This document shows, in pieces, positions 6,561-60,471 of a DNA stretch of 61,788 nucleotides. The stretch is from positions 1 through 61,788 of the forward strand of contig JACUTW010000004.1 in NCBI GenBank assembly GCA_014859605.1, read 5' to 3'. Position numbers and translations under genes: made by a program. Source of the DNA: Desulfuromonadales bacterium. GTDB lineage: Bacteria; Desulfobacterota; Desulfuromonadia; Desulfuromonadales; UBA2197. The first letter of the stretch is position 1. The number at the start of each line of letters is the position of its first letter. Under the pieces are notes generated by a model. The model was not told the DNA's origin. It worked only from the letters and a program-made list of their open reading frames with translations, and made no database searches.

Positions 6561-6578
6561 ACACAGGACGGAATAAAC

Positions 6579-6617
6579 GCAAAAAGGGACTGGCCGTTAT
6601 GGTCAATCCCTTTTTGC
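6579..6617. terminator. bidirectional terminator shared by tpx (+) and rpsU (-)
   Basis: GCAAAAAGGGA...TCCCTTTTTGC inverted repeat with A/T runs on both sides, between convergent stop codons. Confidence 0.7.
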
Positions 6618-6636
6618 GTTGTATGTCGGGGGCTTG

Positions 6637-6831
6637 TTATTCTGGACGCATCAAGCGTTGTTTCTTGCGAAGACGACGCTGTGCTTCCTTCTCCTTGCGC
6701 TTGCGTTTAACGCTCGGTTTTTCGTAAAATTTGCGCTGTTTCATTTCACGAAAGAGCCCTTCCTGCTGCAGCTTACGCTTGAGCACACGAATGGCTTTCT
6801 CAACGTTATTATCAATAACTTGGATTTCCAA
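6637..6831 (-). CDS. rpsU: 30S ribosomal protein S21
   Basis: EIQVIDNNVEKAIRVLKRKLQQEGLFREMKQRKFYEKPSVKRKRK is an S21 signature. GAGGTG lies 7 nt before the second TTG (6831), while the first TTG (6837) abuts the SD, so I call a TTG start at 6831. Confidence 0.85.
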   Translation of the reverse strand: MEIQVIDNNVEKAIRVLKRKLQQEGLFREMKQRKFYEKPSVKRKRKEKEAQRRLRKKQRLMRPE

Positions 6832-6935
6832 GAACAATCACCTCACTTCCCTGCGATATGCAACCCTCATCGAACGAGAGCGAGCGGAAAACTACCCTAT
6901 CCACACAAAAAAAGCAAGATGTAAATATGCTGAGA

Positions 6936-8069
6936 TCAGGGGGAAGAAGAAGGGATTTTTCCCGTATATAGTGCAACGGCGAGGCCGCCGTTCACCAGCC
7001 GCGCCCGGCAGTGAAGCTCGAGGCCGGTCGCCAGAGCCAGATGCTCTTCCGGAGCGATAAAAGCTATGGTCCAACCCGGAAAGGCGCGGCGAAAACCGTC
7101 CCCCAAGCTCCGGTAAAGTCCATGAAGGTCGTCACCCCGCTCCAAACGAATCCCATAAGGAGGATTACAGAGAACCAGTCCAGGTCCGGACCGTACGGGC
7201 AGGGAGTTCAAGTCCGAACAACTGATATCGATCATCTCTGCGACCCCGGCCTGCCGTGCGTTCTGCGCAGCCACCGCCAGGACACGATCATCATGATCAG
7301 AGGCATAAATTGGCGCTGGAGAAAGGATAATCTTACGATCGGCCTCGGCGGTCAAAGCCTGCCACAGACCGGGACGATAACCGGGCCAACGCATAAAAGC
7401 AAAGTGACGATGCCGCCCCGGGGGTTGCTGTGAAGCTATCAGCCCCCCTTCCACGACAATGGTGCCGGAACCGCACAACGGATCACATAAAGGGGTTGAA
7501 CCGTCCCACCCCAGAAGGAGCAAGGAGGCCGCCGCCAGTGTTTCCCGTAAAGGCGCCGCTCCGGCGGCAGCACGATAACCGCGTTTATGGAGAAGCTCCC
7601 CGGAACTGTCACAAGAGATCGTGCAGCTATCTTCGTCAAAGCGGACCAGGATCAGTTGCGTGAAACCAGAATGGCCCTCTCCAGCCATGCTCCGACCAAG
7701 AGCGCGTTCTATCGCCGCACTGACGGTCTCGGCAATCCGGCCAGTATGAATGAGCCGGGAGCGATGTGCGCTTGCGCGAATCTCGATCGCTGTATCCGGA
7801 CACAGAAAACTTCCCCAGGGGAGGCGTAAGGCTTTCCGAAAAAGGTCGGGGAAGTCGGTCGCCTTGAACTCGTCAAAACGAACGACAATTCTAGTGGCAG
7901 TACGCAGGTGCAGGTTGGCAGCATAAAGCTCACGGAGTCCACCACGGCACGACACCCCGCCGCCGACGGAATGGACCTCCTCCAACCCGAGAGCGGCAGC
8001 TTCAGCGGCACAGACCCCTTCCAGTCCCGGCGCCGTAATAATGAAAATTTGCGACTGTTTCTTCTTCAT
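6936..8069 (-). CDS. THUMP-domain class I SAM-dependent RNA methyltransferase (RlmL/YpsC-like)
   Basis: 377 aa. The N-terminal region is THUMP-like. DPLCGSGTIVVEG is SAM motif I and LVLCNPPYG is the NPPY motif IV. Confidence 0.7.
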   Translation of the reverse strand: MKKKQSQIFIITAPGLEGVCAAEAAALGLEEVHSVGGGVSCRGGLRELYAANLHLRTATRIVVRFDEFKATDFPDLFRKALRLPWGSFLCPDTAIEIRASAHRSRLIHTGRIAETVSAAIERALGRSMAGEGHSGFTQLILVRFDEDSCTISCDSSGELLHKRGYRAAAGAAPLRETLAAASLLLLGWDGSTPLCDPLCGSGTIVVEGGLIASQQPPGRHRHFAFMRWPGYRPGLWQALTAEADRKIILSPAPIYASDHDDRVLAVAAQNARQAGVAEMIDISCSDLNSLPVRSGPGLVLCNPPYGIRLERGDDLHGLYRSLGDGFRRAFPGWTIAFIAPEEHLALATGLELHCRARLVNGGLAVALYTGKIPSSSP

Positions 8070-8177
8070 ATTGCCTCATAAGGTTGTACATTTGAGAAGA
8101 AGGGTTGATTCTCCTTCATCCTTTAACCCGGATTCGGAGCTCTGCTACCATATCATCATTCTTTCCTGAGGATAACA

Positions 8178-9098
8178 ATGAAACCTGAAGAAATTGATAT
8201 TGATTGGATCTACTTGATCGAGCGGATTGAGTCGCTCATCGATCTCGGCGAAGAACTCCTTGGTAGGCGCGTTGGCGAAGTCGAACTTGAACCGCCAGCT
8301 CTGGCGCAAAGTCTGGCCTTTGTCTGGATTCGTGATGGCGCCGGCGGGTTTCTCCGGGAAGTCATTGCTCCCGATATCAAACCTCTGAGCGATCTGATCG
8401 GGATCGAGAAGAACGTCGAAACATTGCGTCGCAACACCTTGCAGTTTCTCCTCGGTTATCCAGCAAACGATGTTCTCCTTTGGGGGGAAAAGGGGAGCGG
8501 AAAATCCTCTTGCATAAAAGGGTTGCTCCACGAATTTTCCCTTTTGGGCCTGCGCCTGATCGAGATCCGTAAAAAGGACCTCGACCAACTCCCACTCATA
8601 ATCGCGCCACTCCGGGCGTTACCTTACCGCTTTATCCTCTTTTGTGATGATCTTTCCTTTCAGCCCGATGACATCGCCTGCCATGAGCTCAAAGGACTCC
8701 TTGATGGCAGCATCGAAGGCCGTCCCGAGAATCTCGTCATCTACGCCACCGGCAACCGCCGCCATCTCTGTCCGGAGCTGTTGCAGGAGAACTACGACAA
8801 CGGAGAAATCCATCCGGATGAAGTCCGCGCTGAACAGCTTTCGCTGGCGGATCGATTCGGGCTGCGTCTGCCCTTCTACCCCATCAGCAATGAGACCTAT
8901 CAGGAAATTATTATTCAAAGCCTAAAGCGTCTCGGCATCAGGAAAAGGGGGCAAACGTTTGCTGCCGAGGCGCAACACTGGGCCACCACGCATGGCGGAA
9001 AATCAGGGCGGGTTGCGCGGCAATTTACAAACGATCTGGCCGGGCGCCTGCTCCTGGCGCAACACGCAAAAAAAGTCCGCACGGCAAAGACGATTTAG
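8178..9098 (+). CDS. DUF815-type P-loop ATPase of unknown function
   Basis: GAGGA RBS. LLWGEKGSGKSSCIKGLL (Walker A) and RFILFCDDLSF (Walker B-like). The size of about 300 aa is typical of DUF815/AAA-like proteins. Confidence 0.65.
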   Translation: MKPEEIDIDWIYLIERIESLIDLGEELLGRRVGEVELEPPALAQSLAFVWIRDGAGGFLREVIAPDIKPLSDLIGIEKNVETLRRNTLQFLLGYPANDVLLWGEKGSGKSSCIKGLLHEFSLLGLRLIEIRKKDLDQLPLIIAPLRALPYRFILFCDDLSFQPDDIACHELKGLLDGSIEGRPENLVIYATGNRRHLCPELLQENYDNGEIHPDEVRAEQLSLADRFGLRLPFYPISNETYQEIIIQSLKRLGIRKRGQTFAAEAQHWATTHGGKSGRVARQFTNDLAGRLLLAQHAKKVRTAKTI

Positions 9099-9156
9099 AC
9101 TTTATAAGCAAACATTTTACTGTATAATATGGCCGGTTAATCAACTTGGAGGTTTT

Positions 9157-9699
9157 ATGAAAAGGTTACTCTTCTTCTCGGCTTTACTGATTTTTATTGC
9201 GACGTCCGCCTTTTCCCGCGGACTGCAGGACAAAGTGACCATGAACAGCGATGCGACTGGCCCGATTGAGTTCAGTCATTATGTGCACCTGGAAAAAGTC
9301 GGCAAAAACTGCCCGTCCTGTCACAACACACTCTTCAACATCGATCCAGCCAAGCCCCGCCTCACGGCGACGATGAAGTTGATGGAAGAGAAAGCCGGGT
9401 CCTGCGGCGCCTGTCATAACGGATCACGCGCCTTCTCGGTGAAAGGAGATTGCGCCAAGTGTCACCCGACCCGCGATGTGACCTTTGAAAACGATGGCGG
9501 CCCCGTCCTCTTCAGCCATGAGGTCCACACCGGAATGCACAACTGTGCGGAATGCCACCCTGACATCTTTGTGCCGGCGCACGGCAAGAACCCGCCAGTT
9601 TCGATGGAAGGGATGGAGAAGGGGGAATCCTGTGGTGCCTGCCATGACGGTGGGACCGCCTTTACGGTGAAGGATAATTGCGATACCTGCCACCAGTAA
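9157..9699 (+). CDS. periplasmic hexahaem c-type cytochrome made of two tandem c7/c3-type triheme modules
   Basis: GGAGG RBS and signal peptide MKRLLFFSALLIFIATSAFS. Six CXXCH motifs (CPSCH, CGACH, CAKCH, CAECH, CGACH, CDTCH). The two halves share the pattern GP(I/V)xFSHxxH...CxxCH...M...CGACH(N/D)GxxAF(S/T)VKxxCxxCH. Confidence 0.85.
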   Translation: MKRLLFFSALLIFIATSAFSRGLQDKVTMNSDATGPIEFSHYVHLEKVGKNCPSCHNTLFNIDPAKPRLTATMKLMEEKAGSCGACHNGSRAFSVKGDCAKCHPTRDVTFENDGGPVLFSHEVHTGMHNCAECHPDIFVPAHGKNPPVSMEGMEKGESCGACHDGGTAFTVKDNCDTCHQ

Positions 9700-9750
9700 C
9701 AATCAAATAAGGCGGACGGAGAAAAAACCGTCCGCCTTATTTGATTGTTT
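9700..9750 (+). terminator. rho-independent terminator with an unusually long perfect 20-bp stem
   Basis: CAATCAAATAAGGCGGACGG / AGAAAAAA / CCGTCCGCCTTATTTGATTG followed by TTT. It begins immediately after the stop codon. Confidence 0.8.
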
Positions 9751-9773
9751 ACGACAAAGAAGAAACCCTCTCT

Positions 9774-10478
9774 ATGCAACAATACGACAAATATTTTCGG
9801 TCGGAACAAAAGGTTCAGCTTCGTCTGGCCAACCCCCAACTGGGATCGTCTGAAACTCTGACGCTCCTCTTTGCCAACCAGGGCCCGGGCTACTTTGAAC
9901 TCGTCTTCCCGTACAAAAGCCGCAGCGGCGAGGAATTCCCCCTGACCCCCGGGATGGCGATGGAGCTCACCACCGAATCGATGGGAGTCGGGGTAAAAAT
10001 AGCCGTTGAGTTCCTGGAGTATGTTCGGGGGAGCGGCATGATTCGTGTCAAAGGAATTGGAGACCTCAAGGCCTTTCAGCGCCGGACGCAACCCCGCATC
10101 GACATTGAATGTGGCGTCCGTTTTACCCGGGGACAAGGGGCACTCCGCTCCCTGCGAGAACATTGGCTTAAGAATATTGAAACTATTAACCAGTTGGACC
10201 CGGCCGACCTCCCCTCCTTCACGCAAAGCCGTTTAAATCTCAGTTCAAGCGGTTTTCGTTTAGCGATCAAACCCCCGGTTGAATGCGCCGATCTTTTTCT
10301 GGTACTCATCCAGCTCAACCCGGGAGAGAAACCCCTGTGCCTTCTTTGCGAAACGGTCTGGACCGGAACTATGCTCGATGACGAAGGCCGCATCCCTTGC
10401 GGCATGCACTTTATTGGCATATCTGATGCTGATCGCAAGACTTTGGAAGCACAAGTCAAACGTGCCCGTCCCACCTGA
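9774..10478 (+). CDS. PilZ-like (c-di-GMP-binding) domain protein, putative
   Basis: RRTQPR (RxxxR) and NLSSSG (D/NxSxxG) motifs are present in the C-terminal half, but they are separated by about 46 aa, longer than usual. I used the ATG at 9774 because the track TTG start at 9741 lies inside the upstream terminator stem. The RBS is weak. Confidence 0.4.
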   Translation: MQQYDKYFRSEQKVQLRLANPQLGSSETLTLLFANQGPGYFELVFPYKSRSGEEFPLTPGMAMELTTESMGVGVKIAVEFLEYVRGSGMIRVKGIGDLKAFQRRTQPRIDIECGVRFTRGQGALRSLREHWLKNIETINQLDPADLPSFTQSRLNLSSSGFRLAIKPPVECADLFLVLIQLNPGEKPLCLLCETVWTGTMLDDEGRIPCGMHFIGISDADRKTLEAQVKRARPT

Positions 10479-30478: not shown

Positions 30479-31678
30479 TTACTCGATAATTTCGGCAACG
30501 ACACCCGCGCCGACAGTACGACCACCTTCGCGAATGGCGAAACGCAACTCTTTGTCCATCGCAATCGGAGTGATCAGATTGACCGTCATGGCGGTGTTGT
30601 CACCGGGCATAACCATCTCGACACCTTCGGGAAGCTCGACAATCCCGGTGACGTCGGTGGTGCGGAAGTAGAACTGCGGACGATAGCCTTTGAAGAAGGG
30701 GGTATGACGGCCGCCCTCTTCTTTGGTGAGGATATATGCTTCCGCCTTGAACTTGGTGTGCGGTGTGATCGAACCGGGCTTGGCGAGAACCTGACCGCGC
30801 TCAATGTCTTCACGCTTGACGCCGCGCAGGAGGACGCCGACGTTATCGCCAGCTTGGCCCTGATCGAGGAGCTTGCGGAACATCTCGACGCCGGTGACGA
30901 CGGTCTTGGTGGTCGCTTTCATACCGACGATTTCGACATCTTCCTGAACCTTGACGATGCCGCGCTCGATACGACCGGTAGCGACGGTGCCGCGACCCGA
31001 GATGGAGAAGACGTCTTCGACCGGCATCAGGAAGGGGCGATCGATGGCGCGCTCCGGAACCGGGATAAAGCTGTCGACGGCGGCCATAAGATCCAGGACC
31101 GGCTTGCAGGCCGGACACTCGGCTTTGCCACAACCACACTCGAGAGCCTTGAGGGCACTGCCGGGGATGATCGGGGTGTCGTCGCCGGGGAAGTCGTAAA
31201 GCGAAAGGAGTTCGCGCAGTTCGAGTTCAACCAACTCCAGGAGTTCGGCATCGTCGACCATGTCGGCTTTGTTCATGAAGACGACCATAGCCGGAACGCC
31301 GACCTGACGGGCAAGCAGGATGTGCTCGCGGGTCTGGGGCATCGGACCGTCAGCGGCCGAGCAAACCAGAATCGCGCCGTCCATCTGCGCCGCTCCGGTG
31401 ATCATGTTCTTGACATAGTCGGCATGACCCGGGCAGTCAACGTGGGCATAATGGCGATTGTCGGTTTCGTACTCGACGTGTGCGGTTGAGATGGTGATGC
31501 CGCGCTCGCGCTCTTCCGGGGCCTTGTCGATCGAATCGAAGGCTTTGAACTCGGCGAGTCCCTTAGAAGCCATAACCTTGGTAATAGCTGCGGTCAGGGT
31601 CGTCTTGCCGTGGTCAACGTGACCGATCGTTCCGATATTGACGTGTGGCTTGTTTCTTTCGAATTTTGCTTTACCCAT
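30479..31678 (-). CDS. tuf: elongation factor Tu, copy 1 (str operon copy)
   Basis: 399 aa. [23 protein letters not shown]. It is located after fusA. The protein is identical to the copy at 46735-47934. Confidence 0.98.
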
Positions 31679-46734: not shown

Positions 46735-47934
46735 CTACTCGATAATTTCGGCAACGACACCCGCGCCGACAGTACGACCACCTTCGCGAATGGCGAAACG
46801 CAACTCTTTGTCCATCGCAATCGGAGTGATCAGATTGACCGTCATGGCGGTGTTGTCACCGGGCATAACCATCTCGACACCTTCGGGAAGCTCGACAATC
46901 CCGGTGACGTCGGTGGTGCGGAAGTAGAACTGCGGACGATAGCCTTTGAAGAAGGGGGTATGACGGCCGCCCTCTTCTTTGGTGAGGATATATGCTTCCG
47001 CCTTGAACTTGGTGTGCGGTGTGATCGAACCGGGCTTGGCGAGAACCTGACCGCGCTCAATGTCTTCACGCTTGACGCCGCGCAGGAGGACGCCGACGTT
47101 ATCGCCAGCTTGGCCCTGATCGAGGAGCTTGCGGAACATCTCGACGCCGGTGACGACGGTCTTGGTGGTCGCTTTCATACCGACGATTTCGACATCTTCC
47201 TGAACCTTGACGATGCCGCGCTCGATACGACCGGTAGCGACGGTGCCGCGACCCGAGATGGAGAAGACGTCTTCGACCGGCATCAGGAAGGGGCGATCGA
47301 TGGCGCGCTCCGGAACCGGGATAAAGCTGTCGACGGCGGCCATAAGATCCAGGACCGGCTTGCAGGCCGGACACTCGGCTTTGCCACAACCACACTCGAG
47401 AGCCTTGAGGGCACTGCCGGGGATGATCGGGGTGTCGTCGCCGGGGAAGTCGTAAAGCGAAAGGAGTTCGCGCAGTTCGAGTTCAACCAACTCCAGGAGT
47501 TCGGCATCGTCGACCATGTCGGCTTTGTTCATGAAGACGACCATAGCCGGAACGCCGACCTGACGGGCAAGCAGGATGTGCTCGCGGGTCTGGGGCATCG
47601 GACCGTCAGCGGCCGAGCAAACCAGAATCGCGCCGTCCATCTGCGCCGCTCCGGTGATCATGTTCTTGACATAGTCGGCATGACCCGGGCAGTCAACGTG
47701 GGCATAATGGCGATTGTCGGTTTCGTACTCGACGTGTGCGGTTGAGATGGTGATGCCGCGCTCGCGCTCTTCCGGGGCCTTGTCGATCGAATCGAAGGCT
47801 TTGAACTCGGCGAGTCCCTTAGAAGCCATAACCTTGGTAATAGCTGCGGTCAGGGTCGTCTTGCCGTGGTCAACGTGACCGATCGTTCCGATATTGACGT
47901 GTGGCTTGTTTCTTTCGAATTTTGCTTTACCCAT
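46735..47934 (-). CDS. tuf: elongation factor Tu, copy 2 (tRNA-tufB-type copy)
   Basis: The 399-aa product is identical to copy 1. The stop codon is TAG instead of TAA. It is preceded by four tRNA genes. Confidence 0.98.
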
Positions 47935-48780: not shown

Positions 48781-49821
48781 ATGATATTTTTTGCCTATTC
48801 CGGCATCTTCGCCATCATCCTGTTGGTCACCTACATTTGCCTCCCCTTTTTACCGGCCTTTGTCTGGGCCTTCATCATTTACCAGGCAGGGCACCCTTTA
48901 CAGCAACGCCTGCTACGGCACGTTTCACCTGTGCAAGCTTCCCTGCTAATGCTCTTTATCGTCGTCATTACTATCATCGTGCCGATTTCCCTGCTGGGCG
49001 GCCAACTAGTTATCGAAGCGTCCACGGCCTACCAGCAGCTCGAAGAGCAGGGGTTCACGGCTCCCTCCGCCGAATCATTACGCCAACTCCTTCTCAACTC
49101 GCCTCTCCCTGCCCCTTTACGGGATTATCTGTCCGGAGACAGCCTGAAAGAGACCCTCCTTGTCCACACAGCCGAATTGGGCAAGACCCTTGTTTCCGTC
49201 GCCTCCGCCTTCTTAACCCGGGCGGTCATCAATATCGGGAGCTTCCTCTTCAGCGTCATTGCTTTTCTCTTTATTTACTTCTGTGTCTGCAACAATGGTT
49301 CGGGCTGGTACCAAAAAATCCTCAAGGCGGTTCCAAGGGAATACGGCCTTGATACGCTTCTGTCCCGCCTGGCTTCGGCGGCCTCCGGACTCTTTTGGGG
49401 GGTCGCCGGCACCTGCCTTGTCCAAGGGGTCGTTGGCGGCATAATCTTTCTGTTTCTGGGACTCCCCTCGCCGCTTCTCATCGCCGCCCTGATCAGCTTC
49501 TGCGCTTTGGTGCCGGTCATCGGCACCGCGATTATCTGGCTCCCCTTTGTTCTGTGGCTGGCCATCAACGGCGCATGGGCTAAAGCTCTCATCCTCGCCC
49601 TGTGCGGTGTCTTCGTCATTGGCTCGATCGACAATATTACCCGTCCCCTCCTCACGAAAGTCAGCGGCGCCCAACTCTCCACTCTGACGGTCACCCTCGG
49701 CGCCATCGGCGGACTCACGGCCTTCGGGCTAACCGGACTGGTCATCGGCCCGCTGGTCATAGAAAGCTTTTCCTGGCTGCTCGACCGCCTCGGTCAACTA
49801 GCGCCGGAGGAGATCGCCTGA
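48781..49821 (+). CDS. AI-2E family (PerM/UPF0118) transporter
   Basis: 346 aa with about 8 hydrophobic helices. The C-terminal pattern IDNITRPLL.......LSTLTVTLGAIGGLTAFGLTGLVIGP is typical of the family. Confidence 0.65.
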   Translation: MIFFAYSGIFAIILLVTYICLPFLPAFVWAFIIYQAGHPLQQRLLRHVSPVQASLLMLFIVVITIIVPISLLGGQLVIEASTAYQQLEEQGFTAPSAESLRQLLLNSPLPAPLRDYLSGDSLKETLLVHTAELGKTLVSVASAFLTRAVINIGSFLFSVIAFLFIYFCVCNNGSGWYQKILKAVPREYGLDTLLSRLASAASGLFWGVAGTCLVQGVVGGIIFLFLGLPSPLLIAALISFCALVPVIGTAIIWLPFVLWLAINGAWAKALILALCGVFVIGSIDNITRPLLTKVSGAQLSTLTVTLGAIGGLTAFGLTGLVIGPLVIESFSWLLDRLGQLAPEEIA

Positions 49822-49840
49822 AAACAACCTTTGCATTCCG

Positions 49841-52459
49841 CTATAACAGCCAGAGGAAGGCCGCGGCACTGATAAGGACAAGCATACGGTGAGCAGCCAT
49901 ACCAAAGCGGTTCAAGGCATAGTGCTGCTGCAAACGACCAAGAGCCTGCCAGGAGAAGAAGGTGCCGGCCAGGAGCAGCGGCACGATCAACAGGCGTAAT
50001 GTGCCCAACTCAGGAGTCAGAGCCGTAAGGTCGAACCAGCCCGCCAGGCCGAAAGCGATAAGTGTCAAAGGGATGATGTCTGCCCCCTTTTCGAGCAACG
50101 GCCGGAAGTAAAGAAGAAAGAGGGCAACCACGGCCACCGGAAGATAAGCAAGGCCACAGAGCGTAAAGGTCGCCCGCCAGCGACTGCGACGGTTGCCGAT
50201 TGAAACGACAAACGCCGCGGCAATGTAAAGACCGATGAACAACACCGCCACTGAAAAACCTTTGACCGTCCACACTCCCGCCTCTATCATTTCCGGCTGC
50301 AGCAGCGCCATATAATGGATCCCCTTGACAGCAAAGATTGCTCCGACCAGGGTTACGCAAAAGAGCGCCTCGGCAAAGCCGCGCCGGGCGCGACTGAAGA
50401 GCCCCCAGGCGGGATTGCGGAGATCAAGCTGCATGGAGTGATGCGGACAACTCCGCACACAGTTAAGACAAAGGACGCAATGATCGGCGTTATCGACACC
50501 CGTGGGGTGGAGAGCCATCGGACAGCTCTTCTCTTTAATGCAATCATCAACCCGGCAGCGACTGGTGCAGACATTGTAATTACTGTGCATCTCCAGCAGC
50601 GATATACGCGCAACGACACTGACAATGCGGCCGAGGGGACACAAGTATTTACACCAACCGCGCCGGCCGAGCAGGAGATCAGCGGCCACCGTGGCGACCA
50701 GCAGTCCGAGCAGGAGGAGTCCGGTCGCCAGGGGCCGGATAAACATTCCGCTCGCTTCTTCGAGGAGCAGAATCAACACCAGGATAGTGAGACTCAGCGC
50801 CGCCCCCCCTCTTTTCAGCCACTGCGGGGGATCGCGAATCACCCGGGCCTTGGCGCCGACAAACTCGCCGATGGCTTCCAGGGGGCAGTAACTGCACCAC
50901 CCCCGGGCGACAAAGAAAGCGGTCAAAAGGAGCGCCGGCCACCACAGGGTCCAGACAGTGAGATTAGCGACATTGTCAGCAACCGGGCCAAACAGAGTGT
51001 ACAGGGAAACGAGCAGAAAAAGGGGGACGGTCCCCCAACGCAGCATCCGCGGAAAGCCCGGCCGCTGCGCCAGCTCAGCCACGGCTGGCAAGGTCAGGAG
51101 ATTAAACCGCCCCGCCCCGAAGGACTGGCCCGGCAGGAAGATATGTTCGGCGAGAACCTTATCTCCTTCACAGATCAAGACCGCGCGACTGAGAACCTGA
51201 TAAAGCTCGCTGTTATTGAGAGGCCAGTCGTGATCCAGCAAACGATTGAGAGCTTCATGCGACAGGCGGCGCACCTCTTTGCGATGTTTGGCATTTAAAG
51301 AACGCAGCAGGCGCCGGGCGATGCCGGGGATATCTTTTTTGCGTTCGCGCAAGGGCAGCATGACGATGCTTTCGCCCTGCAGCAGCCGATAAAGGCCCGG
51401 GTCGAAAACCCCGGCGGCGGCTTTTCCCGCGAGAGGCTCACTGCTGGTGGCGATAATCCGCAGTGCCGCGTGACGATATTCTGCCTCGCCGCGGCGCTGA
51501 AAGCGCCCACTCTGTAGTAAAGCACGCAGATCCCGCTGTACTCCCGGCTGCAAAGAGTCGACATTGCGCAGAATCAACGCCCCGCCGCTGGCAAGTTCGA
51601 GCATCCCTCGCCGGGCAGAGACCGCCCCGCTAGAAGCAGCCCCGAAGAGGGCTGTTTCCTGAGCGCGTTCCAGCCGAAGAAACTCTGTTTCCTCCCCGCC
51701 ACTTTGCAACGGCGGCGCCGCGCAATCAAGGAAGAGGAGCGGACGCTGATTCGCCCCATGAAAATGGATCAGCCGGGCCGCCAGGTCCTTCCAGGTTCCG
51801 GCTTCGCCGACGATCAGCACATGACTGTGACTGCTACCAAGCCGCTGCAAGCGAAGGTTGAGCTCTTTGACCCAGGGAGAGCTGCCGGGGAAGACAGAAA
51901 ATTCCGGTAACAGCTGCCAGCCGATGGCGTGACTGAGCAGGTCGCGATTCTCCTCCTCTTCACGCTGGTGGCGCTGCGCCCAGCTGCCGAGCTGGCGGGC
52001 GAGATCGCGACAAAGATTGGCATAAAGCCGGGGGATCTGCGGCAGGAGGGCGGCAAAATCGGCACGGGAGAGACACGCCGCGGTGACAGCCGTCACCGCC
52101 CGCACATCAGCGGTACGTGGTTCATCGGTGAGGATCGCGCGTTCACCAAAGATCTCCCCGACACCAAGTTCCAGTAGATTGAATATTTGCCCGGTAGCTT
52201 TGCGCAGCTCGACCCTTACTCGCCCCTGCAGAATAAAATAGAGCGCATCCGCAGGATCCTCTTTGGTCAAAATGACCCTCCCGGACAAAAAGTCGCAAGG
52301 CCGGAGCAACTCGCCAACCTGTGTAAGCTCTCTATCGGAAAGACCGGTCAGGATACGGAAGGGCCGCAATAAGGGCAAAGGAATCGGCACGATGACATAA
52401 ACCGTCGGTGAGGGGTGCTGCTGTCCGCCGGCAGCTTCTCGATGCCCGGACAACTTCAC
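49841..52459 (-). CDS. fusion protein: cyclic-nucleotide-binding domain + degenerate sigma54-interaction-type AAA+ domain + NapH-like polyferredoxin integral-membrane domain
   Basis: Residues about 35-150 (FILQGRVRVEL..GEIFGERAIL..RTADVRA) look like a cNMP-binding fold. Residues about 210-440 (VLIVGEAGTWKDLAARLIH, ETALFG, RIIATSSEPL, LPLRERKKDIPGIARRLL) look like a bEBP central domain. Residues about 475-872 contain about 10 hydrophobic helices plus WCSYCP, WCKYLCP, CTSRCRVDDCIKEKSCP and CVLCLNCVRSCP. The GTG start at 52459 is uncertain; in-frame GTG/TTG codons lie about 20-30 codons downstream. Confidence 0.7.
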   Translation of the reverse strand: MKLSGHREAAGGQQHPSPTVYVIVPIPLPLLRPFRILTGLSDRELTQVGELLRPCDFLSGRVILTKEDPADALYFILQGRVRVELRKATGQIFNLLELGVGEIFGERAILTDEPRTADVRAVTAVTAACLSRADFAALLPQIPRLYANLCRDLARQLGSWAQRHQREEEENRDLLSHAIGWQLLPEFSVFPGSSPWVKELNLRLQRLGSSHSHVLIVGEAGTWKDLAARLIHFHGANQRPLLFLDCAAPPLQSGGEETEFLRLERAQETALFGAASSGAVSARRGMLELASGGALILRNVDSLQPGVQRDLRALLQSGRFQRRGEAEYRHAALRIIATSSEPLAGKAAAGVFDPGLYRLLQGESIVMLPLRERKKDIPGIARRLLRSLNAKHRKEVRRLSHEALNRLLDHDWPLNNSELYQVLSRAVLICEGDKVLAEHIFLPGQSFGAGRFNLLTLPAVAELAQRPGFPRMLRWGTVPLFLLVSLYTLFGPVADNVANLTVWTLWWPALLLTAFFVARGWCSYCPLEAIGEFVGAKARVIRDPPQWLKRGGAALSLTILVLILLLEEASGMFIRPLATGLLLLGLLVATVAADLLLGRRGWCKYLCPLGRIVSVVARISLLEMHSNYNVCTSRCRVDDCIKEKSCPMALHPTGVDNADHCVLCLNCVRSCPHHSMQLDLRNPAWGLFSRARRGFAEALFCVTLVGAIFAVKGIHYMALLQPEMIEAGVWTVKGFSVAVLFIGLYIAAAFVVSIGNRRSRWRATFTLCGLAYLPVAVVALFLLYFRPLLEKGADIIPLTLIAFGLAGWFDLTALTPELGTLRLLIVPLLLAGTFFSWQALGRLQQHYALNRFGMAAHRMLVLISAAAFLWLL

Positions 52460-52771
52460 CCTGTACCCTACAAGTCTTGTGCCGCGCCGACAGCTTTGTT
52501 CGAAGAGCTGAAAGTTCTTTTCTGCCTATTCAAACCAGCGACATTGACGGGAGATTATTTTTACTGAAAATGAAAAGGTCGACAGGAAGACATGGCGTCG
52601 CAAGGGGATAAAAGTCACATAAAAACATCTTTCTACTTGGAAAGAAGGAACGATCTATGTATAGTTTGGCGGTAAAATTCTGGGGTTGAGCAACAAAATT
52701 TGTTGTGCTGCCTTTACGCTTATCGTGGAGATTCTGCGGAATGTCCGACCATTCGGAAGGAGACAAGAGGA

Positions 52772-54622
52772 ATGAGTAACGCATTTACCAAGAACGAAGC
52801 ATTGCTGAACTGGGTCGCCGAGGTTGCAGGGCTTTGTGAACCAGAACGGATTCACTGGTGCGATGGTTCTCAGGATGAGTACGATGCCATGTGCGCGCAA
52901 CTGGTCAAGAGCGGCACCTTTATCAAGCTGAACGAGCAAAAGCGCCCCAATAGTTACCTCGCCTGCTCTGATCCGAATGATGTCGCACGCGTTGAAGATC
53001 GCACCTTTATCTGTAGTCTCTCCAAACAGGATGCCGGGCCGACCAATAACTGGCTCCACCCCAAAGAGATGAAGGAGATTCTGGCCAAACTTTTTAAAGG
53101 CTGTATGCAGGGCCGGACCATGTATGTCATCCCCTTCAGCATGGGACCTCTCGGATCGCCAATCGCCAAGATCGGCATCGAAATTACCGATTCACCCTAT
53201 GTTGCCGTTAATATGAAGATCATGACCCGCATGGGCAAAGCGGTTCTCGACGTTCTCGGGGATGATGGCGAATTCGTCCCCTGCCTGCATTCAGTCGGCG
53301 CACCCCTTGCCCCAGGTCAAAAGGATGTCCCTTGGCCCTGCAACAAAGAGAAATACATCGTCCATTTCCCCGAAGAGCGCTCGATCTGGTCCTACGGCAG
53401 CGGCTACGGCGGCAATGCACTTCTCGGCAAGAAGTGTTTGGCGCTGCGCATCGCTTCCAAGTTGGCCAAAGACGAAGGGTGGTTGGCCGAGCACATGCTC
53501 ATCCTCGGCATCGAATCACCACAAGGGGAGAAGACCTACCTCGGCGCCGCCTTCCCCAGTGCTTGTGGCAAGACAAACCTGTCGATGCTCGTCCCGCCAG
53601 AGGCCTTCAACAAAACCGGCTGGAAGATCACGACCGTCGGGGACGATATCGCCTGGATCAAACCCGGCCCGGATGGCCGTCTCTACGCCATCAACCCTGA
53701 AGCTGGTTTCTTTGGCGTCGCCCCTGGCACCTCGGTCAAGACCAACCCCAATGCCATGGCTTCCTGTGCCAGCAATACCATCTTTACCAATGTCGCCCTG
53801 ACCCCGGATGGCGACATCTGGTGGGAAGGAATGACCGACGAAGCTCCGGCCGAACTCACCGACTGGCAAGGGAATCCCTGGACCCGCGGTTGCGGCCGTA
53901 ATGCCGCTCACCCCAACTCCCGCTTCACCTCTCCGGCCAGCCAGTGCCCCTCCATCGACGCCGACTGGGAGAATCCCAAGGGCGTACCGATGGCCGCTTT
54001 TGTCTTTGGTGGCCGTCGCAACAATGTCGTCCCCCTCGTTTACCAATCGTTCAACTGGAGCTTCGGCGTCTATCTCGCCGCCACCATGGGGTCGGAGACA
54101 ACTGCAGCCGCAGTTGGCGCGGTCGGCAATGTCCGCCGCGATCCCTTTGCCATGCTCCCCTTCTGCGGTTATCACATGGCCGACTACTTCGGCCACTGGC
54201 TGCAGGTCGGACGCACCACCCCGCAACCCCCGGGCATATTCAGCGTCAACTGGTTCCGGAAAGATGCCGAAGGTAAATTCCTCTGGCCTGGCTTTGGCGA
54301 TAATATGCGGGTACTGAAATGGATTGTTGACCGGGTGAACGGCAAGGCCGGTGCGGTTGAAAGCCCCCTCGGCTGGATGCCGCGCTACGAAGATATCGAC
54401 TGGACGGGACTGGATAGCGTCAGCCGCGAAGAGTTCTATGACCTGATGTCCGTCGACCGAGATCTTTGGAAAGATGAACTGGTCTCTCACGAAGATCTCT
54501 TCGTTAAAATGTACGACCGTTTGCCCAAAGAATTCTTGCACATGCGCCAACTGATCCTGTCCGGATTGTGGCGTTCGCCGGAGCACTGGGAACAGACCGA
54601 CCCTAATATCATCACTGACTGA
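52772..54622 (+). CDS. pckG: phosphoenolpyruvate carboxykinase (GTP)
   Basis: [24 protein letters not shown] and [15 protein letters not shown] (kinase-1a P-loop) are typical GTP-PEPCK motifs, and the 616-aa length fits. The start was moved to Met25 of the track ORF. Confidence 0.93.
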
Positions 54623-56494: not shown

Positions 56495-57616
56495 ATGAAA
56501 AATGATTTGGATCCGATGAATGCAGGAGAGATTCCTGAAGAGATTCTTCGTAAATGGGAAGCCAAAGGGATCAGTCGCCGCGACTTCATCAAGTTCTGCA
56601 CGACCATGACCGCCACACTCGCACTGCCTTTGACCTTTGTCCCCCAGGTCGCCGCGGCTCTGGAGGACAAACGGCTGCCGGTGATCTGGGTGGAATACCA
56701 AAGCTGCAGTGGTGATTCCGAAGCCTTTCTGCGTGCCAACCAACCGACCGCGGCCGAAATTATTCTCGACATCATCTCCCTCGAATATGCCGAAGTGATT
56801 ATGGCGGCCGCCGGCCACCAGGCGGAAAAATCGAAGTGGGTTGCGATGGAGAAGTACAAAGGACAGTATCTGCTGATCGTCGAAGGGGCGATTCCGACCG
56901 GCGAGAACGGCGCTTACTGCACGATTGGCGGTGAAAGCGCTGTGGAGAGTGCGAAGAAGCTCATCAAAAACGCCGCGGCAACGATCACCGTCGGCACCTG
57001 TGCCTCCTTCGGCGGCCTCCCGGCCGCGGCGCCGAACCCGACGACAGCGGTCGGTGTCCGCGATCTGGTACCGGGGGCGACCATCGTCAACCTCCCCGGC
57101 TGTCCGGTCAATGCCGACAATCTCACCGCTACCCTCGTCCACTTCCTCACCTTCGGCAAACTGCCGGCGGTCGATGTGCTCGGCCGGCCGAAGTTTGCTT
57201 ATGGCAAACGGATTCACGACAACTGCGAGCGCCGCGCCCACTTCGATGCAGGCCAGTATGCCGAAAGCTTTGACGATGCCGGCCACCGGCAGGGGCACTG
57301 CCTCTACAAGCTCGGCTGCAAAGGGCCGGAGGCTTTCCACAACTGCCCGACGATTCGCTATAACGAAGGATTGAGCTGGCCGGTGATGGCCGGACACGGC
57401 TGCATCGGCTGCGCCAGCCCCGGTTTCTGGGACACCATGAGCCCCTTCTACCGCCGCCTGCCGCAAGTCCCCGGTTTCGGGGTCGAGGCGACTGCTGACA
57501 AGATCGGTCTCGGTCTGGTCGGTGCGACCGCCGCCGCCTTTGCCGTGCACGGCGTCGCCAGTGCCTTCCGTAAAGGGGATGCCATGGAATCTGATAAAGT
57601 GAAGAAGGAGGAATAA
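56495..57616 (+). CDS. [NiFe] hydrogenase small subunit (group 1, Tat-exported, C-terminal membrane anchor)
   Basis: AGGAGG RBS. Twin-arginine signal ISRRDFIKFCTT. Fe-S Cys motifs (YQSCSGDSEA, GTCASFGG, GCPVN, HDNCERR, CLYKLGCKGP, CIGC). The hydrophobic tail is LGLVGATAAAFAVHGVA. Confidence 0.95.
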   Translation: MKNDLDPMNAGEIPEEILRKWEAKGISRRDFIKFCTTMTATLALPLTFVPQVAAALEDKRLPVIWVEYQSCSGDSEAFLRANQPTAAEIILDIISLEYAEVIMAAAGHQAEKSKWVAMEKYKGQYLLIVEGAIPTGENGAYCTIGGESAVESAKKLIKNAAATITVGTCASFGGLPAAAPNPTTAVGVRDLVPGATIVNLPGCPVNADNLTATLVHFLTFGKLPAVDVLGRPKFAYGKRIHDNCERRAHFDAGQYAESFDDAGHRQGHCLYKLGCKGPEAFHNCPTIRYNEGLSWPVMAGHGCIGCASPGFWDTMSPFYRRLPQVPGFGVEATADKIGLGLVGATAAAFAVHGVASAFRKGDAMESDKVKKEE

Positions 57617-57619
57617 GTT

Positions 57620-59332
57620 ATGGCGAAGCGAATTGCTGTCGATCCGATTACCCGCATAGAAGGGCATCTGCGCATCGAAGCTCAGATCGAAGGGGGGAAG
57701 ATTGTCAACGCCTGGAGTTCCTCCACCGCCTTTCGCGGCATCGAGACGATCCTCAAAGGGCGTGACCCCCGCGACGCCCACCACTTTACCCAGCGCTTCT
57801 GCGGCGTCTGTACCACCGTCCATTCGATGGCGAGTATCCGCGCCGTTGAGGATGCATTAAAGATCCAGATTCCCGATAATGCCCGCCTCATCCGCAATCT
57901 GATCATGGGAATCCAGAACGTTCAGGATCATGTCATCCACTTTTATCATCTCCATGCCCTCGACTGGGTCGATATCGTCAGCGCCCTGGCGGCCGATCCA
58001 GCCAAGACCGCGCAACTGGCGCAGTCGATCTCCGATTGGCCGAAATCGAGTACCACTTACTTCAAAGGCGTGCAGGAGAAGATTCAGGCTTTCGTCAATA
58101 CCGGCCGGCTCGGCCCCTTCCAGAACGGCTACTGGGGACACAGTGCCTATAAACTGCCAGCGGAAGCGAATCTCATGGCGGTCGCCCACTATCTCGAAGC
58201 CCTGGAATGGCAAAAGGACGTTATCAAGATTCACGCCATCCTCGGCTCGAAGAATCCTCATCCCCAGACTTTTCTCGTCGGCGGCATGTCGATCCCCGTC
58301 GATCCCGACAGCCAGAATGCAATCAACGCCGACAAGATCGCCCATATCGGTAAACTCCTCAAGCAGGCGCGCACCTTTGTCGAGCAGGTCTACATCCCCG
58401 ACCTCCTCGCCGTTGCTTCCTTCTACAAGGATTGGGCTGCCATCGGCGGCGGGGTCGGCAATTATCTCAGCTACGGCGACTTCCCCATGGATAACTCCGG
58501 CAGCGCCAGCAGCCTGTACTTTCCACAAGGAATCATCCTTGCCAAAGATCTCGCCAATCTCCTCCCCGTTGAGGAAAAGAAGATCAGCGAATATGTGACC
58601 AACTCCTGGTATACCTACGCCGCTGGCGACAAACAGGGGCTGCACCCCTACGACGGCGAAACCACCCCCAAATACACCGGGCCGAAGCCGCCTTACGAAT
58701 TCCTCAACACCGATGAGAAGTATTCCTGGGTCAAATCGCCCCGCTACAACGATCAACCGATGGAGGTCGGACCGCTGGCGCGGGTCCTCGTCGCCTATGT
58801 CGGCGGCAACCCGGATGTCAAAGGGGCAGTCGATTTCGTCCTTTCTAAACTTGGAGTTGGCGCCGGCGCCCTCTTCTCGACCCTCGGCCGTACTGCCGCC
58901 CGCGGCATCGATTGCCTGGTCCTGGCGCAGAAGAATGAAGTCTGGCTGCAGCAACTCGCCGACAACATGGGGCGCGGCATTTTTGAAACCTTTAACAAAG
59001 AGAAGTGGGATCCCTCGACCTGGCCGAAAGAGGCGCAGGGGTACGGTTTCCACGAAGCGCCACGCGGCGCTCTCGGCCATTGGATTCGCATCAAAAATGG
59101 CGCCATTGCCAACTACCAGACGGTCGTCCCTTCGACCTGGAACGCCGGCCCCCGCGATCCGCTCGGGCAACTCGGGCCCTATGAATCCGCCCTGATCGGT
59201 ACGCCGATAGCGGATGAAAAGAACCCTCTGGAGATCCTGCGGACCATCCACTCCTTTGACCCCTGCCTCGCCTGTGCTGTCCACGTTTTCGACGGCAAAG
59301 GAACCGAGATCGTGCGGATCAAGGCGCTGTAA
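57620..59332 (+). CDS. [NiFe] hydrogenase large subunit
   Basis: N-terminal RIEGHLRIE and the RFCGVCTTVH (L1/L2) motifs, plus C-terminal DPCLACAVH. Ni-ligand Cys is present, with no in-frame TGA. Confidence 0.96.
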   Translation: MAKRIAVDPITRIEGHLRIEAQIEGGKIVNAWSSSTAFRGIETILKGRDPRDAHHFTQRFCGVCTTVHSMASIRAVEDALKIQIPDNARLIRNLIMGIQNVQDHVIHFYHLHALDWVDIVSALAADPAKTAQLAQSISDWPKSSTTYFKGVQEKIQAFVNTGRLGPFQNGYWGHSAYKLPAEANLMAVAHYLEALEWQKDVIKIHAILGSKNPHPQTFLVGGMSIPVDPDSQNAINADKIAHIGKLLKQARTFVEQVYIPDLLAVASFYKDWAAIGGGVGNYLSYGDFPMDNSGSASSLYFPQGIILAKDLANLLPVEEKKISEYVTNSWYTYAAGDKQGLHPYDGETTPKYTGPKPPYEFLNTDEKYSWVKSPRYNDQPMEVGPLARVLVAYVGGNPDVKGAVDFVLSKLGVGAGALFSTLGRTAARGIDCLVLAQKNEVWLQQLADNMGRGIFETFNKEKWDPSTWPKEAQGYGFHEAPRGALGHWIRIKNGAIANYQTVVPSTWNAGPRDPLGQLGPYESALIGTPIADEKNPLEILRTIHSFDPCLACAVHVFDGKGTEIVRIKAL

Positions 59333-59350
59333 AGGGAAGGAGTTAATGCC

Positions 59351-60004
59351 ATGCTTGAAATTCGCTACGTTTGGGAAATCCCGGTCCGGGTCACCCACTG
59401 GATCAATGCCCTGGCGATCGTTGTCCTGTCGATCACCGGCCTCTTTATCGGCTTCCCCTACCTGATCGCCGGTGTCGACGGCGGCTTTGTCATGGGCTGG
59501 ATCCGCTTCATCCACTTTGTCGCCGCCTACGTCCTCACCGCTTCGATGCTGGCGCGCATCTACTGGATGTTCGCCGGCAATCATCATGCTTCCTGGCGCG
59601 CCTTCCTCCCCTGGAGAACCGCAGAGGGACGCCGCAACTTCATCAAGATGCTGCGTTACTACACCTTTACCGGCAAACAGATCTCCTACGAAGTCGGTCA
59701 TAATCCCGTTGCCGCCGTCGCTTATGCCGGCATCTTCGTTCTGCTTATCATCCAGATCGTCGGTGGTTTCGCCCTCTACGCCCAATATAATCCAGGCGGA
59801 ATGATGGCGGCATCGACAGCGTGGATCCTCACCTTGATCGACAGCCAGTGGCTGCGCCTCATCCATCACGCGATCATGTGGCTCCTCGCCGGCTTCTTCA
59901 TCAACCATGTTTACAGCGCCGCCCTCATGGATATCAAGGAACGAAACGGCACTTTGAGTAGCATCTTCAGCGGCTACCGTTACATCGAACCGAAGGATCT
60001 TTGA
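59351..60004 (+). CDS. Ni/Fe-hydrogenase b-type cytochrome subunit
   Basis: 217 aa with four hydrophobic helices. VRVTHWINALAIVVL and IRFIHFVAAYV provide His ligands typical of HyaC/CybH. Confidence 0.9.
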   Translation: MLEIRYVWEIPVRVTHWINALAIVVLSITGLFIGFPYLIAGVDGGFVMGWIRFIHFVAAYVLTASMLARIYWMFAGNHHASWRAFLPWRTAEGRRNFIKMLRYYTFTGKQISYEVGHNPVAAVAYAGIFVLLIIQIVGGFALYAQYNPGGMMAASTAWILTLIDSQWLRLIHHAIMWLLAGFFINHVYSAALMDIKERNGTLSSIFSGYRYIEPKDL

Positions 60005-60471
60005 TGGCAATTCTCGTTCTGGGAATCGGTAACTCGCTGATGAATGACGACGCCCTCGGTGTCACTGCCATCGAAGCATTGCAAGCCCGCTACACCTTCC
60101 CGGCCGGGGTCAGCGTCGTCGATGGCGGCACCCTCGGACTCGACCTTCTGCCGATGCTCGAAGGAGTCAAAAAACTCCTGATCATCGACGCCATCGACAT
60201 GGGCGCGGCCCCCGGCGCGCTCTTTCGCCTTGAAGGCGAAGAGGTACCGCGCGCCTTTGCCAGCAAACTCTCCGTCCATCAAATGGGGGTGCAGGATCTC
60301 CTCGCCGTAGCAGAGTTGCAAGGACATGTGCCGGAGGAATTGGTGGTCTGGGGGATACAGCCAGGATCGATCGAGATGGAGATGCGTTTGACCCCAGCGG
60401 TCGCAGCGGCGATGATGCCGTTGCTGGATGGCGTGGTCGGGGAGTTGGCGGGGTGGGGGGTGGAGTTGTAA
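60004..60471 (+). CDS. hydrogenase maturation endopeptidase (HyaD/HybD family)
   Basis: ILVLGIGNSLMNDDALG and LLIIDAI motifs. The ATG overlaps the preceding TGA. Confidence 0.9.
   Translation: MAILVLGIGNSLMNDDALGVTAIEALQARYTFPAGVSVVDGGTLGLDLLPMLEGVKKLLIIDAIDMGAAPGALFRLEGEEVPRAFASKLSVHQMGVQDLLAVAELQGHVPEELVVWGIQPGSIEMEMRLTPAVAAAMMPLLDGVVGELAGWGVEL

Follow-up and report, generated by a model that had tools for sequence, protein, structure and literature searches.

Genuine sigma54-dependent enhancer-binding proteins (EBPs) of bacteria carry sensor domains that control regulated assembly, as in proteins of the NtrC1 and DctD types, while NapH, a protein of a very different kind, is taken to oxidise quinol in the membrane as the partner of NapG. 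In NapH, four transmembrane (TM) helices are combined with a pair of Cys-Pro motifs and a pair of four-Cys clusters (PMC5928378, PMC8238504), and NapH-like proteins with PF12801 serve as modular units of transmembrane electron transfer (PMC8238504). Both NapH and NosR depend on their Cys-Pro motifs, whose chemistry is unknown (PMC5928378). CcoG, a specific cupric reductase with two Cu sites besides its two [4Fe-4S] clusters, converts Cu(II) to Cu(I) (PMC7558416, PMC8456105). NosR, NirI and RdhC were first called membrane-bound regulators, and NosR and RdhC are now seen as electron-transfer proteins (PMC5928378). Here, we describe a gene that combines parts of both kinds of protein. It lies at 49841-52459 on the minus strand of a 61,788-nucleotide (nt) stretch of DNA from a Desulfuromonadales bacterium (assembly GCA_014859605.1, contig JACUTW010000004.1, positions 1 to 61,788; hereafter the window), and it encodes a cyclic nucleotide monophosphate (cNMP) sensor, a pseudo-EBP AAA+ domain and a nine-TM polyferredoxin module. 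Judged by its domains and motifs, the product is a typical member of an unnamed superfamily with this sensor/pseudo-EBP AAA+/9-TM polyferredoxin order, and is best read as a one-component membrane-integral signalling enzyme and not as a transcription factor.

The gene is one unbroken open reading frame (ORF) of 872 codons plus a stop codon, with a GTG start; the preliminary description did not give its strand. An independent contig from a groundwater metagenome (depth 152) can be aligned over 49600-52800 without any gap and with 139 substitutions, and length and domain order agree with those of the window protein in more than 100 homologues. The long ORF, which the preliminary description had taken as single and continuous, is therefore real and not an assembly artefact. 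The first ~23 codons show no conservation (mean column identity of residues 1-30, 0.38), residues 1-22 have an AlphaFold predicted local distance difference test (pLDDT) score below 50, and in the homologue alignment the start falls at codon 24, which is itself a GTG in the window ORF (52388..52390, minus strand; MPIPLPLL...). This GTG is probably the real start. Immediately upstream of the first GTG, at 52470-52484 (minus strand), sits a sigma54 -24/-12-like element, CGGCACAAGACTTGT (GGCAC-N5-TTGT, two mismatches, GT for GC at -12), which, if functional, would favour the codon-24 start. A sigma54 promoter upstream of the gene was nevertheless rejected, as such matches number 57 window-wide against 57.9 expected by chance and so provide no evidence for it.

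The central part of the protein has the fold of the EBP ATPase. Its alpha/beta subdomain (amino acids (aa) 191-368; 51356..51889, on the minus strand like all features of this gene) matches Pfam Sigma54_activat (PF00158; aa 192-361, E 1.3e-20, 74 bits), and its lid (aa 369-442; 51134..51355) matches AAA_lid_14 (PF25601; aa 371-440, E 2.6e-15, 56 bits). Foldseek gave the EBP fold with TM-scores of up to 0.91 (target-normalised) against FlrC, NtrC1 and ZraR. The central sigma54-type AAA+ region proposed in the preliminary description is thus significant by profile and by structure. The alpha/beta subdomain and lid are homologous to those of NtrC1, NtrC4, NifA, NorR and ZraR (25-33% identity; TM-scores 0.8-0.9, target-normalised). 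Many EBP models of NCBIfam also match aa ~145-445, all far under their cut-offs (best, NifA, 123 bits vs 529).

Residue-by-residue HMMER alignments to the solved EBPs NtrC4, NifA and NtrC1, with all motif coordinates re-derived from the sequence, revealed that the elements which make an EBP work have been changed or lost. Walker A is GEAGTWK instead of GESGTGK (aa 218-224; GEAGTWKD, 51785-51808), with a Trp in a P-loop Gly position; Walker B is LILRN instead of LFLDE (aa 295-299; LILRNVD, 51557-51577); the arginine-finger sequence FRxDLYYRL has become FDPGLYRLL (GVFDPGLYRLL, 51380-51412); and in the lid the sensor II sequence GNVREL has become NNSEL (DWPLNNSEL, 51203-51229), with loss of the sensor II arginine. 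The counterpart of GAFTGA is AASSGA (aa 274-279; 51623-51640), which is preceded by an 8-residue insertion and has neither the Phe nor the Thr. The earlier reading of this loop as GAVSAR (aa 278-283) was four residues out of register, although the loop is degenerate in either register. The statement that every catalytic or signature element is altered holds, Walker A being changed and Walker B, GAFTGA, the arginine fingers and sensor II being lost. A Pfam scan of the protein found no HTH_8/Fis match, in agreement with the reported absence of a C-terminal Fis-type helix-turn-helix (HTH), and no HisKA or HATPase domain. Two true EBPs from the same genome scan, L058 and L072, have GESGTGKEL, GAFTGA, the Walker B DE, FREDLYYR and an HTH, and served as an internal control for the motif reading. 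These two loci, from Ignavibacteria and Bacillota, had been candidates for the fusion outside 'deltaproteobacterial' lineages and were rejected as ordinary EBPs with all canonical motifs. Taken together, the AAA+ domain of the window protein lacks every element for ATP hydrolysis and sigma54 contact, and is predicted to have no ATPase activity.

The degenerate state of this domain is a property of the whole superfamily. An exhaustive HMMER search of 1.84 billion cluster representatives with the family profile gave matches of which the best 150 were nearly all end-to-end, and at least 130 clusters, defined at 50% identity, have the AAA+/polyferredoxin core in common. When 133 of these matches were aligned with MAFFT, none had a canonical Walker B Asp-Glu pair; where an EBP has the Glu, 71 have Asn and 30 have His. 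The arginine-finger arginine is lost throughout, Arg ranking below the six residues most often seen there, while 19 members retain the Arg of sensor II. The P-loop reads GK in 86 members, EK or ER in 30 and WK in four, WK being confined to the clade of the window protein. Within that clade, W223, K224, I296 and L297 never vary, conservation of R298 and N299 is at least 90%, and the mean column identity is 0.83 for the lid and 0.80 for the linker ahead of the AAA+ domain, with the highest value (0.85) in the Fe-S domain described below. Given that the altered residues are fixed and that the lid and linker are strongly conserved, purifying selection acts on the dead domain, which must have kept some function. 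The GAFTGA loop varies in length and sequence in the family, and the remnants ALFGH and PLRER..DIP, with GAFSFA in some members, point to descent of the superfamily from true EBPs. The view in the preliminary description that this is a pseudo-AAA+ scaffold and not a transcription activator is upheld by the motif losses, which are fixed family-wide, and by the lack of a DNA-binding domain.

Where an EBP would carry its HTH, the window protein continues into a membrane module. The C-terminal 430 residues contain nine (possibly 10) TM helices by hydropathy and AlphaFold; the membrane helices predicted earlier are confirmed, whereas their number, put at about 10, is more probably nine. A juxtamembrane segment (GRFNLL) and TM1-TM4 (50660..51133; PF12801, hydropathy, positive-inside rule and AlphaFold helices) are followed by a Fe-S domain (aa 601-690; 50390..50659), recognised by weak Fer4, Fer4_18 and Fer4_10 matches and by the NapH model, and by TM5-TM9 (49844..50389; hydropathy, AlphaFold), which are absent from NapH and bear a conserved AYLP motif in TM7. 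Pfam Fer4_5 (PF12801) matches aa 580-618 over its gathering score (E 3.1e-7). WCSYCP (aa 521-526; 50882-50899) follows TM2 and WCKYLCP (aa 602-608; 50636-50656) follows TM4. The Fe-S domain has a CX3CX4CX5CP cluster, CTSRCRVDDCIKEKSCP (aa 631-647; 50519-50569), and a CX2CX2CX3CP cluster, CVLCLNCVRSCP (aa 661-672; 50444-50479). The two Cys-Pro motifs and the two four-Cys clusters named in the preliminary description are all present, but the first motif is CX2CP and not CX3CP, which is the form of the second alone. A cytoplasmic N-terminus together with Lys/Arg counts of the loops places both Cys-Pro motifs and the 90-residue Cys-rich domain on the cytoplasmic side. C522, C525, C603 and C607 are present in all 133 superfamily members, and the eight cluster Cys, and hence all 12 Cys, in at least 131. 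The AlphaFold model of the module is confident (pLDDT 83, predicted TM-score 0.85). Foldseek of this model against the PDB found nothing at E <=1e-3 (best TM-score ~0.2), and phmmer of the module against the PDB returned generic ferredoxin motifs alone, at E >1.

Comparison with the described polyferredoxins indicates that the module, on its motifs and profile scores, is a member of the NapH/NosR/CcoG polyferredoxin superfamily and of none of its families. When the isolated module was scored, it reached 53.3 bits with the NapH/MauN model TIGR02163 (cut-off 213; aligned aa 571-678), 45.2 bits with the NapH model NF007013 (cut-off 234), 28.6 bits with the NosR model (cut-off 1000) and 22 bits with the CcoG model TIGR02745 (cut-off 316.7); PF13746 scored 17.7 on the protein, under its cut-off of 27. 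Like NapH, MauN and NosH, it has a core of four helices in which TM2 and TM4 are each followed by a Cys-x-x(-x)-Cys-Pro motif, and then a cytoplasmic domain with two four-Cys clusters. However, NapH and MauN have two CX3CP motifs and two CX2CX2CX3CP clusters, whereas the present module has CX2CP in the first motif position and CX3CX4CX5CP as its first cluster, with five extra helices after them. Moreover, unlike NapH, it is fused to cytoplasmic signalling domains and its gene lies in no nap, nos or mau operon with a NapG partner: gene context was read from called genes in six genomes and an all-against-all BLAST of ORFs from 52 related loci, and no napG/napA, mau or nos gene adjoined the gene in the window or in these loci. 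Hence, of the NapH-type Fe-S module proposed in the preliminary description, the general layout and the predicted topology agree, with the departures just given, and the membership of NapH does not stand, and 'quinol-interacting' applies to the module by analogy only. CcoG, FixG and RdxA belong to the same superfamily, and CcoG is likewise membrane-anchored and cytoplasm-facing with two [4Fe-4S] clusters; unlike CcoG, the window protein has no periplasmic Ig-like domain and no ccoNOQP/GHIS context (no cco genes were found near the gene), and a copper role would be deduced via relatives. NosR, NirI and RdhC (PceC) have the same module of four TM helices with two Cys-Pro motifs. Their N-terminal domain is a periplasmic, flavinylated FMN-binding domain, whereas the N-terminus of the window protein is cytoplasmic and consists of the cNMP-binding and AAA+ domains. 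The NosR-like proteins P0147 and P0149, which are weak matches, have the FMN-binding domain PF04205, while Pfam found none in the window protein. An Anaerolineales locus, L066, was rejected as a member of the fusion family, being a plain 296-aa NapH-like protein.

At the N-terminus, a CAP/PKA-type cNMP-binding (CNB) domain (aa 31-142; 52034..52369) is recognised by Pfam cNMP_binding (PF00027) at aa 57-139 with E 1.3e-19 (70 bits vs a cut-off of 27.5), and matched the CNB domains of PKA and PKG in the PDB at ~1e-14. Its phosphate-binding cassette (PBC), GEIFGERAILTDEPRTADV (52103-52159), includes FGERAILTDEPRTA, which fits the cassette pattern G-E-x-A...R-[ST]-A. In the cassette, FGERAILTDEPRTADV, the Gly-Glu and Arg-Thr-Ala contacts of the cyclic phosphate are all retained, and in the clade alignment G105, E106 and R115 are invariant and A117 almost so, Thr116 being next to R115 in the window protein. 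The domain is of the cNMP-binding type with an intact cassette and is predicted to bind ligand. A helical linker (aa 143-190; 51890..52033; AlphaFold helix at aa 143-178), the one of high column identity mentioned above, joins it to the AAA+ domain. A distant relative also links the core to cyclic nucleotides: at locus L088 the CNB domain is a separate 159-aa gene (6511-6990) that ends 10 nt ahead of the AAA+/polyferredoxin gene (7001-9013), an arrangement that is either a natural split or a frameshift. Another relative has a HAMP-nucleotidyl cyclase gene two genes away. In P0142 (locus L089), it is the last helices that are apparently split off, as a 161-aa ORF (9129-9614).

EBPs are modular, with CNB, GAF and REC sensors ahead of the AAA+ domain, and the same is true of the present superfamily. 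Its N-terminal inputs swap between CNB, CNB-GAF, CNB-GAF-GAF, GAF, HisKA-REC, Zn-ribbon-FHA-CNB and AIM24-CNB; examples with the same dead AAA+/polyferredoxin core are P0173/P0221 (CNB-GAF-GAF), P0184 and P0260 (HisKA-REC), P0267 (Zn-ribbon-FHA-CNB) and P0261 (AIM24-CNB). Full-length homologues with 50-96% identity and a length of ~858 aa occur in Geobacter-type metagenome-assembled genomes, Trichlorobacter lovleyi, Citrifermentans, Geomonas, Oryzomonas and Geoanaerobacter, as well as in Desulfuromonas, Malonomonas, Geopsychrobacter and Trichloromonas, a spread over Geobacterales and Desulfuromonadales. Orthologues in cultivable hosts include WP_012528869 of Citrifermentans bemidjiense and WP_012471558 of T. 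lovleyi. More distant homologues (27-34% identity) were found in Syntrophorhabdus and Desulfohalobiaceae. Neither G. sulfurreducens nor G. metallireducens was among the best 80 loci. Full-text literature searches aimed at the fusion found no publication on this architecture, in keeping with the earlier remark that no characterised member is known.

Some proteins consist of the membrane module by itself. Among them, P0140, P0144 and P0146 are complete at ~430-480 aa, P0140 having 32% identity over 95% of the module, and hhalign of the family profile against 98 stand-alone proteins gave 99.8% probability over 337 columns, a stretch that begins with the juxtamembrane segment and takes in TM1-TM7. 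The homology thus reaches well past the four-helix NapH core and includes TM5-TM7. The stand-alone proteins of ~450 aa (P0144, P0336, P0378, P0146 and P0140, from Sulfurimonas, Hydrogenovibrio and others) have the same CX2CP and CX3CP motifs, the extra helices and an AY.P motif; they differ in having no sensor or AAA+ part and in being only ~20-32% identical, and their own function is suggested by fusions and neighbours. By Pfam and NCBIfam, at least 10 clusters of these relatives carry NosL fusions and three carry Caa3_CtaG fusions. P0146 is in an operon with PCuAC-type (PF04314) and YtkA-type proteins. In three genomes from two phyla, a TonB-dependent receptor gene ends 9-13 nt before the start of P0144, P0336 (Sulfurimonas) or P0378 (Hydrogenovibrio), and two of the three loci also contain a neighbouring MerR-family gene. 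This two-gene unit is conserved in Sulfurimonas and Hydrogenovibrio. The stand-alone ~450-aa 9-TM polyferredoxins carry no annotation beyond '4Fe-4S binding protein'; loci and clusters that show them with these fusions and neighbours are L090 (4892-8371), L092 (2892-6371), L093 (2871-6359), P0405, P0399 and L091 (734-3051). The stand-alone relatives resemble a sister group, as yet unstudied, of the CcoG cupric reductases. The nearest of them point to copper or metal trafficking, a reading that was absent from the preliminary description, and the data favour CcoG-like metal reductase chemistry at least as strongly as a NapH-type quinol function.

We propose, with a probability of roughly 55%, that the gene product is a signal-regulated membrane Fe-S oxidoreductase in which the dead AAA+ domain acts as a coupling scaffold. 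Given that the classical inputs are N-terminal, that the AAA+ domain is degenerate and that the Cys set is invariant, the membrane module is the most plausible effector. Binding of cAMP or cGMP to the sensor would cause a change that the conserved helical linker relays to the AAA+ domain, which, with neither ATP hydrolysis nor sigma54 contact, would serve solely as a conformational or oligomerisation scaffold, a role that is under the control of the regulatory domain in true EBPs. The scaffold would then switch the activity of the membrane module, whose two putative [4Fe-4S] clusters and two Cys-pair sites may move electrons from a menaquinol or ferredoxin donor to a substrate at the cytoplasmic face of the membrane. 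Since fusion with, or gene proximity to, copper chaperones and TonB-dependent receptors recurs among the closest stand-alone relatives, and CcoG is a cupric reductase, our most specific guess is a regulated metal-ion reductase acting on Cu(II) or possibly Fe(III); this narrower proposal is tentative, and we hold it to be a minority possibility. Control of a membrane effector by a cytoplasmic CNB domain, as proposed here, is also found in MloK1-type channels and the sperm SLC9C1 exchanger (for the latter, PMC10620091). There, however, the effector is a channel or a transporter and no AAA+ intermediary is known, whereas the effector proposed here would be a Fe-S redox module.

Several points weigh against this proposal. 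Fe-S binding, cNMP binding, the absence of ATPase activity and the oligomeric state are all inferred, and the P-loop Trp does not formally exclude nucleotide binding. The PBC arginine is retained in only 49 of the 133 superfamily members, so that gating by cNMP may not be general. The module resembles no solved structure and falls under the curated cut-offs of NapH, CcoG and NosR alike. The metal or copper link comes from relatives that are ~20-32% identical to the module, and no copper or metal genes were seen beside the fusion proteins themselves. In addition, no neighbour is conserved in the 52 loci, so the partner, donor and substrate cannot be read from the context. The commonest neighbour family, generic ABC ATPases, occurs in at most eight of these loci, and the neighbours vary by genome: dcuB and a flavocytochrome fumarate-reductase-like gene in T. 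lovleyi, pst genes in D. versatilis and sulfur assimilation genes in another.

The alternative that survives best, although we consider it unlikely, reverses the direction of signalling. The protein would be a membrane-tethered redox sensor whose Fe-S/Cys module senses the menaquinone pool, O2/NO or the cytoplasmic redox state while the CNB domain senses cNMP, and the dead AAA+ domain would be the output, binding or poisoning genuine EBP hexamers or another partner and so controlling transcription indirectly. The lid and linker come close to the Fe-S domain in conservation, which suggests that they preserve a surface for protein-protein contact, as this idea would require; Geobacterales have many true EBPs, one of which adjoins an orthologue; and NosR, NirI and RdhC, of the same superfamily, were first described as membrane-bound regulators (PMC5928378), although the same account now reads the role of NosR and RdhC as electron transfer and not as regulation. 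Such a protein would, however, consist of inputs and a degenerate scaffold only. The P-loop and the L1 loop vary freely in the superfamily, which is unexpected for an output that recognises a partner, and no EBP, rpoN or other gene co-occurs in the 52 loci. The module also stands alone in metal-trafficking operons, as is typical of an enzyme or carrier and not of a sensor. The logic of the domain order and the autonomous existence of the module therefore lead us to favour a gated redox enzyme over a redox sensor.

A second alternative, which we rank next and also regard as improbable, is a NapH-like respiratory quinol dehydrogenase that oxidises menaquinol and, like NapGH, passes the electrons to an unlinked periplasmic or cytoplasmic reductase, with cNMP tuning the flow and metals not being the substrate. 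The best curated matches of the module are indeed the NapH models (53 bits for TIGR02163 and 45 bits for NF007013), the NapH layout is common to the module (PMC5928378, PMC8238504), and the fumarate-reductase-like gene and dcuB adjoining the T. lovleyi gene would suit a respiratory role. Nevertheless, these scores are about one quarter of the family cut-offs; the CX2CP motif, the atypical cluster and the five extra helices depart from NapH; no NapG-like partner or reductase is conserved nearby; the extracytoplasmic FMN domain of flavinylated NapH-like systems is missing; and among the closer stand-alone relatives the links are to copper chaperones and not to reductase operons. The names given in public databases, 'sigma 54-interacting transcriptional regulator' and 'histidine kinase', can be set aside as very improbable, the latter being ruled out by the lack of HisKA and HATPase domains: the significant PF00158 and AAA_lid_14 matches and the weak, chance-level GGCAC-N5-TTGT element upstream are outweighed by the loss of the GAFTGA Phe and Thr, the RN in place of the Walker B Asp-Glu, the lost arginine fingers and sensor II and the Gly-to-Trp change in the P-loop, by the lack of an HTH, by EBP equivalog scores far under cut-off (NifA, 123 vs 529), by the contrast with L058 and L072, which keep every canonical motif, and by the ~9 TM helices that anchor the C-terminus.

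Unlike EBPs, then, the window protein has a non-functional Walker B, arginine fingers, sensor II and GAFTGA loop, a Trp in the P-loop and no HTH, and ends in a 9-TM polyferredoxin; on these features it almost certainly cannot work as an ATP-driven sigma54 remodeller.

In the window, the gene lies between a convergent AI-2E transporter gene and a divergent pckG, with the start of the hydrogenase small-subunit gene 4.0 kb away, as the preliminary description had it. As there are no shared neighbours elsewhere, the proximity to pckG and to the hydrogenase is uninformative, and the place of the gene between the AI-2E transporter and pckG, 4 kb from the hyaABC-like hydrogenase, is probably incidental. 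A low-depth freshwater-sediment contig (X5) joins 49712 to 52607 with the whole gene missing, the shorter side of the match being 23 bases; it may represent a related population without the gene or a chance match. Citrifermentans-like RNA contigs of low depth cover the orthologue in part only, and are a weak sign that the orthologue is expressed and silent on its regulation. The hydrogenase operon itself (56495-60471, plus strand) is of the membrane-bound uptake [NiFe] hyaABC type, with small subunit, large subunit and cytochrome b; a 156-aa ORF at 60001-60471 is probably a hydrogenase maturation protease, and a DegP/HtrA protease gene lies between the operon and pckG.

Elsewhere in the window, the usual rpoA/spc/S10/str/rpoBC/nusG ribosomal super-operon occupies ~16-47 kb. 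A ~399-aa ORF at 46735-47934 (minus strand) is EF-Tu by Pfam, and another ~399-aa ORF, at 30479-31678 after a 692-aa ORF (presumed fusA), is presumably a second tuf copy. A 245-aa ORF at 9741-10478 (plus strand) has a weak C-terminal match to PilZ, a c-di-GMP receptor domain, and just upstream is a DUF815 AAA-type protein (8178-9098, plus strand). A 992-aa protein like NAD-glutamate dehydrogenase, with the Bac_GDH catalytic domain, is encoded at 1335-4313 (plus strand); it is notably shorter than the ~1600 aa of its class.

In summary, all parts of the window protein come from known families, and the family that combines them is large, mis-annotated and amenable to experiment. It is quite possible, if somewhat short of an even chance, that the superfamily represents an unrecognised class in which an extinct sigma54-activator ring serves as a gating scaffold that couples inputs by second messenger or phosphorylation (cNMP, GAF ligands, REC or FHA) to a transmembrane Fe-S metal or electron reductase, with at least 130 clusters and with members in the Desulfuromonadales/Geobacterales, Syntrophorhabdus and Desulfohalobiaceae genomes examined. 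Hundreds of proteins are named sigma54 regulators or histidine kinases without having the required features, which inflates EBP counts and sigma54 regulons in Geobacter-type bacteria. The family is also a clean case, found family-wide, of the conversion of an EBP ATPase into a non-catalytic module under strong constraint, and is a good system for studying the function of a dead AAA+ ring. If the reading as a regulated reductase is true, a second messenger would directly control a Fe-S membrane redox protein in metal reducers, cAMP/cGMP signalling would gain a function in these environmentally important bacteria, and membrane electron or metal flow would be under post-translational control by proteins that are annotated as transcription factors.

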